64,000 nt of DNA, from the NCBI GenBank assembly GCA_000182565.2, contig KQ257454.1; one strand, given 5' to 3'. Below are positions 32,799-41,751 of the stretch, in pieces; position 1 is the stretch's first letter, and every line of letters starts with the position of its first letter. The position numbers and the translations under genes were made by a program. This DNA comes from Spizellomyces punctatus DAOM BR117 (lineage: Eukaryota). Below the pieces are notes generated by a model. The model was not told the DNA's origin, made no database searches, and saw only the letters and a list, made by a program, of their open reading frames with translations.

Positions 32799-33766
32799 CC
32801 ATGGTTGGGAGGATTGATTCGTAGACATGTGTAGATTGCGGTGCAAGGATGTTCATCATGGAATACGTATTATATTCGTGTACACGTTTGTTGATGCTGA
32901 GCTGCAGAGTTCATCCATTATCATAACGTTACCATCTACTTAACCGTCCTGCATGTCCACACACCCCACTGAAGGGCGATCAAGGCGGTCCCGCCCTGAC
33001 AATCTCTTTTTTAAACTCTTCAAAATCCACGTCCGTCCACTTTTCTGTTTCATTGGGAACTTGATAGTGGGCGATTATTTATACAGGACTCGAGAACGAC
33101 GAAAAAAATGCCCAGATTCATCACCCTACCTGTCTCAAACTCGTCGATGGAGGGTATATGTTCAGGGGGTATCTCCAAATCTGACGCATACTGGCATGTC
33201 AGGTTGCCAAAGTATGACCAACGACCCTGATAAAAACAGAAAGAAACAATACTAACCGTCGTCCGGGAGCACTTCGGTAGCCCAAGAAAAGTCCTCTCGA
33301 CTCAACTCAAGGATGGCGACATTTCCGTGTACATGCACTTGATAATGCCCGTCGGACTGCGCGAGAGACAGTTAGCGAAAGCTTTCAGGTAGAGGTCACT
33401 TAACGCTGCGGGTGGATGGGAGGCTTACCATACTACAGACGGGATCTGAGTCGTCTGCGGTACAACGTACTGCTGCCCCGTGGACAGGTAGGAGTTTAGC
33501 GCAGGAACTCGTTCCATGCTTACAAGACAGTTGAGGTTTGGGAAGTTGCTTGCATCTTCAGCATCACGTGTCGCGTCGTCGTCGTCTACTAAACTCTTCA
33601 GCGAATTCCGTCCTGTTGCTCACCTTGCAGATTTCTGCACTTTCTCCAAAGCTACATTCCTTTTTGAGATCCTTTCCTAGTTCGTTCTATCAGACACCTG
33701 TAGACCGCAGCGTCGCAAGCGTAGCGATCTTCCTTGATATCACCGGTTAAAGTATAGATCAGTCCC

Positions 33767-35165
33767 ATGGCGACCATCTCAAAACGACAACTGGATGAGA
33801 CACTAGCCGCTTTCGAGACTACCGTGTCCGGTGCCGATGCTACTGTCAAACTCAAGGACGATAAATTATTTGAGCGACTAAAAACCTTTAAAATATCCTA
33901 CTTTGTTTTGCATTTTTGGCCCCTGGCTCGTTGTTCAGTTATATGTAAAAGTGCTTAACTCTTCTTTACGAAACTACTTGGTTCGCAAAGTCAGATGATC
34001 TTTCTGCACCTGTCTGCGCCCGTTACGGATGGATTAACAGAGGATTAGAGACATTATACTGCCCAACGTGCGAGAACACGCTTGTGTGCGAGATCCCGGC
34101 AGAGGCGTCTCCAGAGGAAGGTTCGTGCAAAGATATTCCCATGCATACCCTGCCATGGGTGTGCCGATGTCGGTACAACCCACATCCCTGGGGTATACTG
34201 CTATTGCAAAATAATGAACAAAGATTCGCATCCGTAGTGTTGGCAAAGTCGAAAGAATACCGAGATAATCTGTTAACCGCCCATGGAGAGTCCTGCCCTT
34301 GGGCAATCCATCACTTGGATGGTATGTCATTTGATCGTCGCATGGGCGGTATGCGACATCTGATGGCCCTTGCACCCAGACACAGCATATCGATTGCCGT
34401 TGAGCTCTCCAGCGCATACCATCCAAGCATTCCGCAATCGGTACAAGGCGTTGTCACAACATCCACCGTCAATACCCAAAATCGTTTTTAATGAATCACA
34501 AGCTGGTAGATCTGTGAGTTGTCCCATAGCAGATATCGGCAGTCATGTGGAAGCTGATCCTTCGTTTTCGTTTTCAAAAGGTCAATGTCGATCTTTTACA
34601 TCAGAACTTGCACGTCGATGGCGACGAGTCAGAGGAGCTAACGAGGAGCTGCATTCTATTGGCATTGTTTGGGTGGGAATTTCCTAACGAGCAAGCTACC
34701 GATTTCCTTCAATGTCGACTGTGCGCGAGAATAGTGGGATTGTGGAACTATGATCATATTGTGACTTTAACCGATGCGGACTCTGCCGATCGCCGAAAGC
34801 GAATAAAGGTGGCACAGGATATCAGCGTGGAATTGCCGTCGCACTTCGACGTTTTGTGGGAACATAGGTATTGATCACCATCCAGCACATATTGAGCGAA
34901 ACTGACGATATGCTTTGGTGGTAGGTCATATTGCCCATGGATATGTACTCCGCCCGGAAGTGGTCAACAGAAACTGGGATGGATCGCAACACTTGATACT
35001 GTGTTGTCAGCAGGGAAACCAAACCGTTTATTGGCCCATATGCCTCCACCAATCCCAAAGGTAAGCAAGGATAATCAAAATATTAAATTATACGGAGACG
35101 CTACAGTGCAAACGCCCAACACACACAAGGTCACCCGAACAACGACTGCACTTGAATCAGCATGA
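33767..35165 (+). CDS. zf-C3HC protein (ZC3HC1/NIPA, Rsm1/Pml39 family)
   Basis: Spliced RLKTFKETTWFAKSDDLSAPVCARYGW...CPTC...AHGESCPW; second module LALFGWE...CRLCARIVGLW...FDVLWEHR..CPW. The first intron is AT-AC. Confidence 0.88.
33893..33969 (+). other. U12-type (minor spliceosome) AT-AC intron
   Basis: 5' splice site ATATCCTA, branch TGCTTAAC at 33952-33959, 3' end TTTAC. Removal restores the frame and the conserved W-F-x-K motif. Confidence 0.82.
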
Positions 35166-35269
35166 ACACCATATACGCATTCTTCCGTACTACAGGAAAC
35201 CCTTCGACTCGGCATTTGTACAATGTGAAGTAACCATTCTTTATCAAATCATTTTTTATGATTGACTTT

Positions 35270-36628
35270 TTACCCCTGGGGCTGGATCTGATGTTGTTGT
35301 TGCTGTGACGCTTGATTTTGCTGTTGCTGTTGGTGGTCACTATGCGATTGTTGAGCCTGTTGGGCCTGCTGAGCTTGGTGTGCTTGTTGCAAGGCTTGCA
35401 TTTGGTTTTGCAGCTGTTGAAGATAATATTGATGTTCTGCGGTCGAAGCCTCTGTTTGTGCGTGATGTTGCTGTTGCTGTTCTTGTGATGATTGGCTTTG
35501 ATGTTGCGCATGCTGGACATCCTCTTCGTGGTGGGCTTGGGCTTGTGAAGACTCCTCATCTCCGCCTTGTTGTTGTCGGATCATCTGCAGGCCCACCTGA
35601 TTACCCTGTTTCTCATTCGTGAGCTTGATTTGTTCATGTCGAGCAGCCTTGCAGAAAAACCCCTACCTGTGGATTCGCGAGCTGATATGCGAGCAACGCT
35701 TGCTGCTGTTCTGGAGGAAGACTCTAAAATGTACAAACAAAATGTTCAGCTCCTTTCAGAAAAGTCTTCAGTGGAACACAATTGATATTACCGCAAGGTA
35801 TTGTGTGGGATTCTGATAATATGCATACGTGGCCGGAAGATCCTGGTAAAACTCTGCGGTTGAGCGGACGATTGGGGTCTGTCGCAACTAATAGAAGTGC
35901 ATACCTTCATGACAGGCTTATTGATCTCATCGCGTGGTACTATGTCGATCAGAACTGATTTACGTCCGAAATTAGCATGAGGTTACACCTGGAAATCATC
36001 TACAAATGATCATATTCTTACAATCATACATATCCGCCTTGCTGATTGCCGTTGCCACATCGCTTTTTTGTAATGTTCGTCGTTTGTGTTCCTCCGTATG
36101 AATCCATGACCGCATCGTGAGTTCAAGTATGAATATCTCGCATGCTTTAGAAAATATCATTGGGGCTTCCGCACTAATCATCTGCCACGTCCATATGTCA
36201 ATGTGGATTTAAGGAAAGACCGCAATAGATTGGCGTTTCAAGAGCTTACCATAGTCTAGAGACGCAAATGGTGTGAGTAACACTGGAAGCGAAGAAAGAA
36301 TATCCGAGTCTTCACTAGGCATCACCTTTGCATCTTCATCCGCCTTCATGACCTTCTTTACTCTAGCTAAAGGGAGTTGGTGGAACTTGAAATCCAACGG
36401 GCCGTGTTCAATATCCGCAATTTGTTGCTACAAAAGACAAAGAGTCAGACCATCTAGTTCAGGTTCGCACCGCTTCGGGTTGTTTGCTCAGGTTACCTGC
36501 CAGAATGACTGCATCATTTCTTGTATTTGCTGTGACGTTGCTGTACTCGGTCCTCCCGCTGCCCCTGATTGGTCTGAACTACCCTGCCCACCATCGCTAG
36601 ACGAGTTCGTTGGTGCTTGGTCGGTCAT
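35270..36628 (-). CDS. HAP5: CCAAT-binding factor subunit NF-YC/Hap5 with a Q/H-rich tail
   Basis: FWQ...[61 protein letters not shown]...[12 protein letters not shown]. Includes a probable 6-nt micro-exon at 36250-36255. Confidence 0.93.
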
Positions 36629-38081
36629 GGTGTTGGTAGTGATGTTGGCAAATCACGATCGAAAGTGCAAGCGCACCTTGCCCTGAGGACGAAGGGAGGC
36701 GTGGGACTTGAGGTTTGTGTGACAGAAACGTGACTTGACTTTTTAGGGTTTAATTGCTTCTGGGCCGGTAGCCAGACTACTGTAACTTTAACTGTAAAAT
36801 TTCAAACATTCCTGGGATAGTAAAAGTATATAACTAGATAAAAGCAATTGAAGAGATGCTGGAAAAGTTTGTTTCCTTGCAGCTGAGTTGCGCTTAATAA
36901 CGACGAGGACCTGAGACCCGTAACGACAAACGACAGCGAAAATGCTAGGATTCTGAGCATATTCTAGCGATGCAAAAGATACATCGCTCGATATTTTTCG
37001 CAGGAAAAACTCATCTTTAGATCAATATAGTGTCAAGAAATATCTGATAACTCCATACAAAGACAGTCACGAACATGTTTGTTGCAGTCCAAACCATCAT
37101 GCCAGCGATGCACCAATCTAAGGGATGAGTTCTGCATAACTTGAAAGGACTGGCTAGATGCATTATCATTGTGAATTGGATGACAAATGCCATGTGAGTC
37201 GCTTGCCATCACTCTCGCAGCTTTTTCCACGGCTTCATCATAGCGTTGATAGCTTCTTCATCGTCTACAAGTAACTTGTAGTTGTATCCTATGTTGAATG
37301 CTGATTGTCGCCATACGGCCAACAAGATGGGTGGTGTCATTGGTATCAGCAAAGGTTCTTCTCATTTTCCAGACATTTCACTATTCTTGACAACATCTAC
37401 GTAAAAGGCTATGTCTCCATCAGAGCACCGTAGTCGAAGCGAATTGATGAGCAGTTATGACAGGAATCTAGCACAAAGGGAACCATCTGGACATGCAATG
37501 AGGAATGCAATTACAGGGACCGTTCCAGCAACAAATTCATCTTGGACCCTTGACATGCCGGTTGACAATGCATCTTGGATGCTGAGTGTCTGGATTTTCT
37601 AGTCTCTAAATTTGCTATTAAATGACTCCCTGACTGTGTGAGTTGGATGGAGCTGAGTTTAACAATATTAGCAATAGCGCTGAAGTGTCCTGAGCAGCAA
37701 TTTACATTGGTTAGTTGACTTGCATGTTACTAGTTCATATGCGCAATTTATAGTGCGTGGAGTGAACCCTGCAAACGCAATAGCATGGCAAGGATGTAAG
37801 GCTTCCTCGGGACGATATGCCGAACAAAGAGGGAGGCCCACAACCCGCACTCACGGCATTGACCTGTTAAAAGTCCGTACCTTGGGTGTGCCTGCTCGTA
37901 CCAGCGAGGGTCCGCGTTCATGACGAGGTGAAGGTCCCCAATTCCCAAACCAAACCAAAATGCATTGGTTCTATTCCAAGAAACCGATATTAGGCATTCG
38001 ACTCACAACATTGGACGTTGCCATAGAAACAACACTCCGAAATCTTGACCCAGAACTGTCTTGAGATCACCTAGAACTGAA

Positions 38082-39986
38082 ATGGCATTTCTTACACGGT
38101 CGGCCATGTTAAGCTTAAACCGATGTCGGTCAGCGACACGGCTGTGCCGTACGGCGTCAGTCTTTGCTTCAAAGACACATGTCCGGTCACGCCCTGCTTC
38201 CATGTCAACACAAGCCGCAAGTGGATCGACAACCCGACGAGGGGCGACAGTACGTAAACGAGAAGAGCACTTTGGGCGATAAGAGCTGGTTTCTCTTTCT
38301 TGGAATTCAGTTTGTAATGTCTTTGGTGTTAAGGTTATTCCGAACGCGAGCATGCCACGGCCCTCAGGATTTCCGTCAATTGCAAAGGAGTCTAAGGCGT
38401 TATTGGGAGAGTGGACACCGGTAAGGACGAAACCCCGCGCCGTAGAAAAAGCCAACCTCAGAACGCAACGGGACTTTTGTTGATGCTTTTTGCCCCTCTC
38501 TCAGAAAAAGGCAGCGCCGGCCAACGTGGGGGAGGTTTTACAGTTCCCTGCCTCGTGCTCGAGTGCGACAAAGGGAGCGATTCCAAACTCAGTTGAAAAA
38601 GGAGTATGTTTTGTCCGATTGGAGCAAAATCTTTGTATTTGGTGTGCCCATGTTGACTTTGGTCATTTGGTATTAGAAACAGTCCGCATTCATGCTTCGG
38701 CAATCGACTCTGGATTTGATTGCTGAGGTGACCCGGGAGGCAAATCAAGCGACCTGCAATCGCGTGATGACACTTGGTATGCTTCATCAAGTGAAACATT
38801 GTGCACTCGCACTTTCTCACTGCTTGGGCGGTAGATGGACCCAAAGGTGTGGGCAAAAGTGTCACATTGCTCCAAACCGTGAGCCATTTTCGCAGCGAAG
38901 GATGGATAGTGTTGTATCTGCCACAAAGTGAGCGTCGTTGGGTTGAATATTGATTCGTGGGCTGACAGTGGATCGTTTGTAGCTGCCAATTGGGTCGATG
39001 GAAGTGAACCATTCGAGCCAGTCCCCGGAACTAAGATGTTCCGCCAGCCACAGGCCGTTGCTCGCACATTGCAGCAATTCCTTGACCTCAACCCTGATCT
39101 CACCAAGGTGATCCGACACACATACAGCTGCAGTTAGATTGATGTTCGTCCAGTTAACTGTTGTTTCTTTAAGCAGATAAAGACCGCGGAAGGACAGACT
39201 CTTGCACAAGTGGCGGAGACCGGTGTCCGCGAACCCGAAAAGGCCCAGGAATCTCTAGAGACGATACTTGACACTCTATCCAAAGAGAAAAACCGCCCAC
39301 CAGTGCTAATAGCAATCGACCAGGTCAACAGCTTCTATAGTAAAACTGCCTACTTTGATGCGCAGAGCAACCCTGTCCTTGCGAATCAGCTTACTGCTGT
39401 CGATGCTTTCGTGCGGTTCCTCAATCGCACACGGCCACTGGTGGGTAGCGAGCGACTTTGGTGCAACATTTGAAATAGACCTTCTAAGCCACACTGTTTC
39501 CTTTAGTCAAAGGGAGCTATCCTCTGCGCCGTTGATCAAAGCGACACCCAACTCCAATCCCCCTTCCTTGAAGTACTCCTTTCCAATAGCCCTCAAATCC
39601 CATCATCCCCGTCATCCCAACCTATAGCCGCGAACCGCAGATATCAAGATGTCACATCAGTGGATTCGTTTGGAGTTCTCTTATCCGATCGGCTGGCTCC
39701 TGCTAGTTATGACCCGTTTGCCCCTCAAAGTGAATGGCATCCAAAGAGTCTGGCGCGATTCAATATACCGGGGTACAATAGATTCGAGGTCGCTAGTATC
39801 CTTCAGTACTATAAAGACGCGGAAATTCTCAAGAATGGTGGGTTGCAAGATGTGTTTTTTCTGTTAGTATTTAGTACTCATCCGTGTTGTTTAATAGTTA
39901 AATTGACAAGGGAGTATATCGAGAAACAGTTGGTGCTTACTGGAGGGAACGCCTTGAAACTGTACAAACGATGCCTGTCATTCTAA
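38082..39986 (+). CDS. RSM23: Mitochondrial small ribosomal subunit protein mS29 (Rsm23/DAP3)
   Basis: R/S-rich presequence, P-loop DGPKGVGKSVTLLQ, GWIVLYLP, FRQP, PPVLIAIDQVNSFY..T.Y, YDPF, C-terminal LTGGN. Confidence 0.88.
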
Positions 39987-40215
39987 AATTTCGTGTCATT
40001 CACATATTATCAAATAGAGATGCATTATCATTTACATGCGCATTCTAGTTGCCATGGACATAAATAGGTTTGCGAAAAAGGGGGAAGAACGAAAAACATG
40101 ACAGTGCAATCCCAAAAATCCGCAATAGATATCAATGTACACAAAATAAATATGACTATGTATCAAAATGCTCAACCTTCCGTTATAATCCTAAAAAATG
40201 ATTCTGGTACCGAGG

Positions 40216-41751
40216 TCACCATTTGACAGCCAAACCGCTCACATTCGTCTTTTCCACGGCTCTATACCCAGTATGTAACATTACCCGCGCCTTTTCCGTC
40301 TCTTCACCACCCAACCACTCTTGATACAAGACTCCAATCGCCGAATTGGCCTCTGGGAACTGGACACCTGCCTTATTTGCCACCCACCGATACGCTTCCT
40401 CCGTTCTGGCCACCCAGTCTCTAGACGCGGACGCCAAATCGTCATCAGGTTTAAGCTGTCCACCTCCATTGATACATCCCGAAGGACACGCCATGACTTC
40501 CACAAAATGGTAATCGCTGGTAGCTGTTGGACGACGTCGAAGAGATGAAGTGGGTTTGAGTTTTCGGACAAGGTTTTGAATGTTGCGGAATCCGTAAGCA
40601 GCGGCGAATTTGAGGACGGGGGTGGGATCGTTAGGGAGGGTCAAGGTGTATTCTTTGAAGTCAATGTTTCGGCCGGCACGGACTTGAACGCCGTTTCGAC
40701 CGAGTTCAACGTCTTCCAGTGTCAAGTTGATTCCATATAATACTCGAGCTGCGTATCGGAATATGTAGGAAAGGTACCCACCCGATGATGATCCCTCTGT
40801 TCCAGCCAACATGGGGATACCAGTGTCATGTGACGCCACAGCCTTTGTAAAGAGACTCTCTACCTCTGCTTCTGGGACATGTCCGATTCCCAAGCCCTGC
40901 TCGCCAAACATTTTTTCCACCTCTCCAGTCGTAATAACGCAATCCACGTCCCGAGTAGAATAAATCTCGTTATAAAAGTCTTGTCGGGAGGCTTCCAGCT
41001 TTTTATCGTAACACGGCATGACGGAGACATGGTACACCTTGTCAGGCGTCAGCCCTATTTTGGACCCCAAGTAATCCTTGACAAGCGATCCCATGACTTG
41101 TTGTGGTGATTTCGTCGTATCAATAAAGGGAAGGATGTAGTCGTGAGTTTTCTCGGCATAGCAGATCCATCCTGGGCAGGCACTGGCCAACATTGGGAGT
41201 ACGCCACCGGTAGCACGATGCTGTCTGTATCTCCGAACAAACTCTTTGGCACTTTCCAGTAAGGAGAAATCTCTTGAAAAGGCGGTATCGAAAACGTAGT
41301 GAACTCCAAGAAACTGCTTAAAGAACCACAACAGTCGCATGTGAACCTGGAGTGGTGTCAGATTGTATTTTGCTGCTATGGAAGCACGAGACTGAGGGGC
41401 AACGGAAACGACAATGGTTCGCACGTCATTGGGGCGGCCTTGAGCTATCGCCAGTTTATTGGCAGTGAGGATCTCGTAGAGTTCTTTTTGGCTTTGCATG
41501 GTGATGAGTACACTTTCCGCTGATGTGATACATCCACTACATGCCAGGCAATCATTGAGTGATATGCTGGCGGTCTCGAGCTTGGTTTCTCCTCCATCTT
41601 GCCGTACTTCATAGTACCCGCCTGTATCGTCAACTCTGATCTGCGTCCCTTCAGTGGCAGTCTTTTTGATCTCGACTGGCTTGATGCATGCTTGTGATGG
41701 TGTGATAAAGTCGTTGAGATCCGTCAACACCACTGCTCCCGAGAATCCCAT
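40216..41751 (-). CDS. NAR1: Cytosolic Fe-S assembly factor Nar1/NARFL (CIAO3), single exon
   Basis: MGFSGAVVLTDLNDFITPSQACIKP, ISLNDCLACSGCITSAE, SACPGWICYAEK, VMPCYDKKLEASR, YGFRNIQN, VEVMACPSGCINGGGQ, C-terminal W. Confidence 0.96.
   Translation of the reverse strand: MGFSGAVVLTDLNDFITPSQACIKPVEIKKTATEGTQIRVDDTGGYYEVRQDGGETKLETASISLNDCLACSGCITSAESVLITMQSQKELYEILTANKLAIAQGRPNDVRTIVVSVAPQSRASIAAKYNLTPLQVHMRLLWFFKQFLGVHYVFDTAFSRDFSLLESAKEFVRRYRQHRATGGVLPMLASACPGWICYAEKTHDYILPFIDTTKSPQQVMGSLVKDYLGSKIGLTPDKVYHVSVMPCYDKKLEASRQDFYNEIYSTRDVDCVITTGEVEKMFGEQGLGIGHVPEAEVESLFTKAVASHDTGIPMLAGTEGSSSGGYLSYIFRYAARVLYGINLTLEDVELGRNGVQVRAGRNIDFKEYTLTLPNDPTPVLKFAAAYGFRNIQNLVRKLKPTSSLRRRPTATSDYHFVEVMACPSGCINGGGQLKPDDDLASASRDWVARTEEAYRWVANKAGVQFPEANSAIGVLYQEWLGGEETEKARVMLHTGYRAVEKTNVSGLAVKW

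Follow-up and report, generated by a model that had tools for sequence, protein, structure and literature searches.

A very probable U12-type AT-AC intron in the ZC3HC1/NIPA-family gene SPPG_03651 of Spizellomyces punctatus, and the same codon boundary in orthologous loci

U12-type introns carry a branch site of consensus TCCTTRAC located about 10-15 nt from the 3' splice site, and they are devoid of a long polypyrimidine tract. U2-type AT-AC introns, for their part, have neither the ATATCCTT 5' motif nor a branch motif near the 3' end. The consensus of the U12-type 5' splice site, RTATCCTT, is given in PMC2846911. Minor snRNAs were reported in Spizellomyces punctatus in 2008 (PMC2396436), and a 2023 study attributes to this species minor introns together with many or all of the minor snRNAs (PMC10639083); the main texts of these two reports do not name the gene SPPG_03651.

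The intron described here comes from the same species as these published minor introns and snRNAs, and we consider it very probable that positions 33893-33969 constitute a U12-dependent (minor-spliceosome) AT-AC intron, the first of six in SPPG_03651, a gene of the ZC3HC1/NIPA family in S. punctatus DAOM BR117. It resembles the U12-type AT-AC introns found in animals, in plants and in early-diverging fungi by its /ATATCCT start, by a TCCTTAAC-like branch motif whose distance to the 3' end is about 11 nt, by its termini and by being a single minor intron amid ordinary GT-AG ones in one gene. It departs from the U12-type consensus by one mismatch per motif (A at +8 and G at branch-motif position 2). 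With 77 nt it is very short among U12-type introns, a length that fits the 57-117 nt of the other introns of the gene. Its likeness to U2-type AT-AC introns is limited to the terminal dinucleotides, the ATATCCTT 5' motif and a near-3' branch motif both being present.

Gene structure and splice signals

The window, i.e. the whole 64-kb stretch of DNA that was analysed, has a G+C of 0.42-0.53, consistent with the 47.6% reported for the genome (PMC4991717). Within it, SPPG_03651 encodes a protein of 317 aa with a zf-C3HC and a NuBaID_C domain, and its exons, introns and splice signals are listed in Table 1 together with the orthologous loci discussed below. Introns 2 to 6 are plain GT-AG introns in which U12-type motifs are absent.

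Table 1. Features of SPPG_03651 in the window, and metagenome loci grouped by the state of the same codon boundary
Feature	Location	Strand	Remarks
Exon 1	33767..33892	+	codons 1-42, ending ...RLKTFK; P0001 residues 1-42
Intron 1, very probably U12-type AT-AC, 77 nt	33893..33969	+	removal gives the deposited protein
5' splice site ATATCCTA	33893..33900	+	7/8 to RTATCCTT
Branch-site motif TGCTTAAC	33952..33959	+	7/8 to TCCTTRAC
Exon 2, ETTWFAKSDDLSAPVCARYGW..., start of zf-C3HC	33970..34120	+	PF07967, 2.7e-09; 100% identity to P0001
Intron 2, U2-type GT-AG, 117 nt, GTTCGT...TAG	34121..34237	+	protein mapping
Exon 3	34238..34321	+	spliced translation
Intron 3, U2-type GT-AG, 58 nt, GTATGT...CAG	34322..34379	+	protein mapping
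Exon 4	34380..34513	+	spliced translation
Intron 4, U2-type GT-AG, 67 nt, GTGAGT...AAG	34514..34580	+	spliced translation
Exon 5, NuBaID_C (second C3HC finger)	34581..34867	+	PF08600, E = 2.4e-08
Intron 5, U2-type GT-AG, 57 nt, GTATTG...TAG	34868..34924	+	spliced translation
Exon 6	34925..35060	+	spliced translation
Intron 6, U2-type GT-AG, 69 nt, GTAAGC...AAG	35061..35129	+	spliced translation
Exon 7 with TGA stop	35130..35165	+	spliced translation
U12-type signals at both ends, AT-AC	L006 (74 nt), L020 (473 nt), L051 (873 nt)		
U12-type signals at both ends, GT-AG	L047 (135 nt), L054 (886 nt)		
U12-type signals at both ends, 3' end apparently AT	L021 (297 nt), L062 (1015 nt)		L021, ATATCCTTT...AT; L062, GTATCTTTT...AT
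U12-type branch motif	L016, L059, L065, L048		donor not located in the available DNA
U2-type GTAAAT...AG, 47-58 nt	L005, L019, L036, L050		
Interrupted, class not assigned	L055, L057		

Intron 1 is in phase 0 and has a G+C of 0.36. The ATG of the gene occupies 33767-33769 and the AAA of codon 42 closes directly 5' of the intron, exon 2 opening with GAA ACT ACT TGG TTC GCA AAG. The presumed branch A (33958) and the last base of the intron (33969) are 11 nt apart, and the 10 nt TCTTCTTTAC follow the branch motif and close the intron. In the unspliced frame (ORF 33758..33958), a TAA is encountered within the branch motif itself, at 33956-33958. The 5' splice site, the branch motif and the branch-to-3' distance are those of U12-type AT-AC introns. 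An earlier note on this DNA, made from the letters, had proposed this class for the intron; re-reading of the sequence found all its letters and coordinates correct, and the 5' site, branch site, spacing and termini all agree with its proposal. The G at position 2 of the branch motif would mismatch U12 snRNA, unless the U12 of S. punctatus differs.

The peptide of exon 2 is 100% identical to a public protein, P0001 (“uncharacterized protein SPPG_03651”). On exon 2 alone (33970-34119), zf-C3HC (PF07967) is found at 2.7e-09 over profile positions 17-56, a value reaching 1.1e-13 on the longer frame, NuBaID_C (PF08600) is found on a later exon, and both domains are precomputed for P0001. The ZC3HC1/NIPA family assignment put forward in the earlier note holds, both Pfam domains being present; some relatives go under the name “Nuclear-interacting partner of ALK” or “zinc finger C3HC-type protein 1-like”, and membership is attributed here from domains and similarity.

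When the seven exons are spliced, exon 1 ending at 33892 and exon 2 starting at 33970, the translation is equal to P0001 over all 317 residues. The deposited sequence reads ...RLKTFK/ETTWFAK... (RLKTFKETTWFAK; longer stretch RLKTFKETTWFAKSDDLSAPVCARYGW), which means that the public model already makes this junction; P0001 derives from the gene model and is not independent evidence of it. Elsewhere in the gene, intron 2 contains no stop in the frame of the exons, so that an open frame of 180 codons (33949-34491) continues across introns 2 and 3, and retention of intron 2 would add 39 residues to the SPPG_03651 protein rather than truncate it.

Coding context of the junction

The significance of the splice motifs was evaluated over the whole window, where the two strands together carry 19 copies of RTATCCT. 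The conjunction tested associated RTATCCT with a branch motif having at most one mismatch from TCCTTAAC, whose A had to lie 9-15 nt before an AC or AG end matching the 5' site, for a length of 40-600 nt. It is found once, at intron 1, none of the other RTATCCT sites of the window having a matching branch site and end. In 300 first-order Markov simulations its mean was 0.82 per window, and 49% of them contained at least one; the motifs alone are no rarer than chance, the difference being not significant. The argument draws on the coding context and, independently of it, on the orthologues.

A word-index protein search with the whole SPPG_03651 protein recovered only the protein itself. Using HMMER against 1.84 billion representatives, 959 relatives were retrieved at E <= 0.001, of which the best 150 were used. 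They provided 124 homologue segments, each made of the exon-2 match with 30 residues upstream and 45 downstream, P0001 being excluded. In 116 of these 124 segments, R-[LV]-x-[TS]-[FY]-x is followed by three residues and an invariant W, ungapped across the junction, and the removal of exactly the 77 nt of intron 1 rebuilds this conserved motif in SPPG_03651 as R-L-x-T-F-x / x-x-T-W-F-A-K.

An HMM built from the 124 segments was then used to score 2948 exon-1/exon-2 junction pairs, all frame-keeping and stop-free. The AT-AC pair 33893-33969 obtained 91.5 bits, within 0.8 bit of the top of the 2948 pairs (92.3). Each of the 15 top-scoring pairs listed removes 77 nt and is offset from 33893-33969 by no more than a few bases, and the five that outscore the AT-AC pair end in TA-CT, CT-AC, CC-AA, TC-AA or AT-GA, with no splice-site pair among them, leaving the AT-AC pair as the only high-scoring junction with recognised splice termini. 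The best GT-AG pair, 33905-33951 (47 nt), scored 77.9 bits. This margin of 13.6 bits and the spacing common to 116 of the 124 segments bear out the claim of the earlier note that excising the 77 nt gives the zf-C3HC family motif, which is restored without a gap.

These scores bear directly on the alternative of a U2-type GT-AG intron across the gap, either 33905-33951 or 33905-33990 (86 nt), the latter being the alternative named in the earlier note. Both pairs are frame-keeping and stop-free; the first would insert ISYF...CLTLLY and the second would swap ETTWFAK for ISYF. However, they score 13.6 to 22 bits worse than the AT-AC pair, the second (69.4 bits) also removing the invariant W46, their donor GTTTTG is unlike those of introns 2 to 6 (Table 1), neither pair is used in the deposited model, and U12-type signals are found at the AT-AC site in orthologues. 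A GT-AG intron at this place is accordingly very unlikely.

The same codon boundary in orthologous loci

A degenerate DNA pattern for W-F-x-K-P-x-x-L-S-x-x-x-C-A-x-x-G-W gave 67 metagenome loci. In 50 of them, which are intron-less (7 with a one-codon shift), the ...TF-x motif is read continuously with the downstream frame; in the other 17 the interruption falls precisely nine bases upstream of the W codon. U12-type signals are present at both ends in seven of the 67 loci, four more have the branch motif and four are of U2-type, the near-duplicates among the loci (L059/L065 and the four U2-type ones) reducing the number of independent cases. In the seven loci with signals at both ends, RTATC[CT]T stands right after the ...T/S-F/Y-x codon and the 3' end is preceded, at a distance of 9-17 nt, by a TCCTTAAC-like motif. 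They share with intron 1 of SPPG_03651 the same boundary (in phase 0 and three codons upstream of the invariant W) as well as the 5' and branch motifs. They differ from it by lengths ranging from 74 to 1015 nt, by switching between the AT-AC and GT-AG subtypes and, for some, by an apparent 3' AT. The comparison of intron positions among orthologues that the earlier note had suggested speaks in its favour, the U12-type introns sharing an identical codon boundary.

These loci have diverse affinities. The exon-2 peptide of L051 is 88% identical to a ZC3HC1-like protein of Amphiura filiformis, those of L016, L059 and L062 match a Porites “Nuclear-interacting partner of ALK” at 90-93% identity, that of L021 is 79% identical to a ZC3HC1-like protein of Mercenaria mercenaria, and that of L006 is 63% identical to a C3HC protein of Cladochytrium replicatum. 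The deposited proteins of Porites (...ETFT/PFTW...), Amphiura (...ETFK/IFTW...) and Mercenaria (...YTFS/PLTW...) agree with the inferred junctions.

The apparent intron end of four coral-like loci (L016, L059, L062 and L065) and of the bivalve-like L021 is AT, neither AC nor AG. As read from these sequences, these ends (GT...AT in L062, AT...AT in L021) are candidates for non-canonical minor-intron termini. The four loci with a U2-type intron (L005, L019, L036 and L050) belong to a very AT-rich organism, the G+C of the intron being 0.04-0.18, and their intron looks like an in-place conversion from U12-type to U2-type.

That U12-type introns occur in chytrid-, coral-, brittle-star- and bivalve-like loci argues for an old minor-intron position common to fungi and animals, and intron 1 of SPPG_03651 would then be an inherited, ancient minor intron rather than a new one. 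The chances appear evenly balanced that the full history was that of an ancestral opisthokont minor intron, kept from chytrids to coral, echinoderm and mollusc relatives, with flips among AT-AC, GT-AG and 3'-AT forms, one AT-rich lineage having turned it into a U2-type intron and most sampled loci being without it. If so, its long retention could tie the expression of a nuclear-basket and cell-cycle protein to the activity of the minor spliceosome. The conservation pattern at this boundary is tidy, as expected of minor introns, and one site in one gene, being U12-type AT-AC, U12-type GT-AG, U2-type or intron-less according to the lineage, gathers the textbook fates of minor introns.

The orthologues also inform on which spliceosome is involved. 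AT-AC ends by themselves do not settle this point, and a rare known class of AT-AC introns is spliced by the major (U2-dependent) spliceosome. A category of “Other AT-AC introns” is among the entries tabulated in PMC2846911. For intron 1 such a mode of splicing is highly improbable: ATATCCT is the motif pairing with U11 and U6atac, the TCCTTAAC-like motif lies 11 nt from the 3' end, contrary to U2-type AT-AC introns, and the orthologues alternate between AT-AC and GT-AG yet keep RTATCCTT and the branch motif, which is the U12-type pattern.

Predicted splicing, transcripts and gene models

The splicing steps proposed for this U12-type intron are taken by analogy from the established mechanism of its class. 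U11 snRNA would pair with the 5' ATATCCT and U12 snRNA with TGCTTAAC, bulging the A at 33958; U4atac/U6atac-U5 would then join, U6atac taking the place of U11, and two transesterifications would ligate 33892 to 33970. A transcript retaining the intron would have its frame ended at the TAA of the branch motif. The working minor spliceosome that the earlier note had deduced for this genome agrees with the published reports on S. punctatus, as far as their main texts describe it (PMC2396436, PMC10639083). An Rfam search of the 64-kb window returned 0 matches at the gathering score, a result which is uninformative at that scale.

About 6 in 100 of the RNA run X8, which bears the same species label, was read over 33300-40300, with 1174 reads placed and a coverage concentrated at gene ends. 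The depth is about 1.25 over 33768-34001, too thin to show junctions, and no joint is listed there, be it 33892>33970 or one of the two GT-AG alternatives; only two joints are listed from this run over 33300-40300 (33356>33429 and 39836>39897). A contig of run X2 covers 33782-35180 and is collinear with the window, introns included, and as such is uninformative on splicing. Retention of the 77 nt as part of a broken gene, or of one whose translation restarts downstream, would fit with the lack of junction reads across 33892/33970 at this depth but is exceedingly improbable, since excision of the 77 nt leaves both flanks encoding the conserved family motif in a single frame, the remainder of SPPG_03651 is intact with both domains present, and the retained sequence would stop the frame at 33956-33958.

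The gene models of S. punctatus were obtained by combining predictors with RNA-Seq (PMC4991717), and this use of RNA-Seq makes transcript support for the AT-AC junction likely. The earlier note had anticipated that predictors restricted to GT-AG introns would mis-model this gene; this does not apply to SPPG_03651, whose deposited protein uses the AT-AC junction, and may apply to relatives. The closest relative among the matches listed (39% identity), P0002 (SmJEL517_g01975 of Synchytrium microbalum), has an ICLHV insertion at residues ~43-47 (alignment columns 88-92), exactly at the exon 1/2 junction and missing from the other 8 aligned proteins. Judging from the alignment, this insertion would be consistent with a gene model in which a non-GT-AG intron went unrecognised. 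Eight of the 124 segments break the ungapped spacing (P0002, P0140, P0064, P0007, P0076, P0056, P0148 and P0149), P0140 being without the V-x-T-F-x stretch altogether, and some of these eight homologues may be mis-modelled at the same intron. The comparison is of practical use in flagging orthologues that are likely mis-modelled, such as the S. microbalum protein with its five extra residues. S. punctatus is transformable in the laboratory, and this clean, short and well-supported AT-AC intron could serve as a fungal reporter of minor splicing.

With its junction present in the public gene model and minor splicing in this species in print, intron 1 is in that sense already known, correct but ordinary, and has little weight as a discovery. 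In the main texts searched, no minor intron is mentioned for genes of the ZC3HC1 or C3HC type. More specifically, “ZC3HC1” has 0 occurrences in the main text of PMC10639083, the per-intron lists of which would be supplementary, and C3HC is absent from the main text of PMC6959997.

Other observations concern the neighbourhood of the gene. The first of the two joints listed from run X8, 33356>33429 (4 reads), skips 72 nt (33357-33428) with CT..AC ends, corresponding to GT..AG on the minus strand, and the second, 39836>39897 (20 reads), delimits a 60-nt GT..AG intron on the plus strand (39837-39896). GTATCCTT at 39796 sits in RNA-covered sequence, and none of the joints listed from this run starts there. 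Most of the RNA depth of the region, up to 54 on the minus side at 35172-35405 and overlapping the 3' end of SPPG_03651, falls on a convergent minus-strand gene (34938-35662) with a Q/H-rich low-complexity stretch (ORF 35270-35662).
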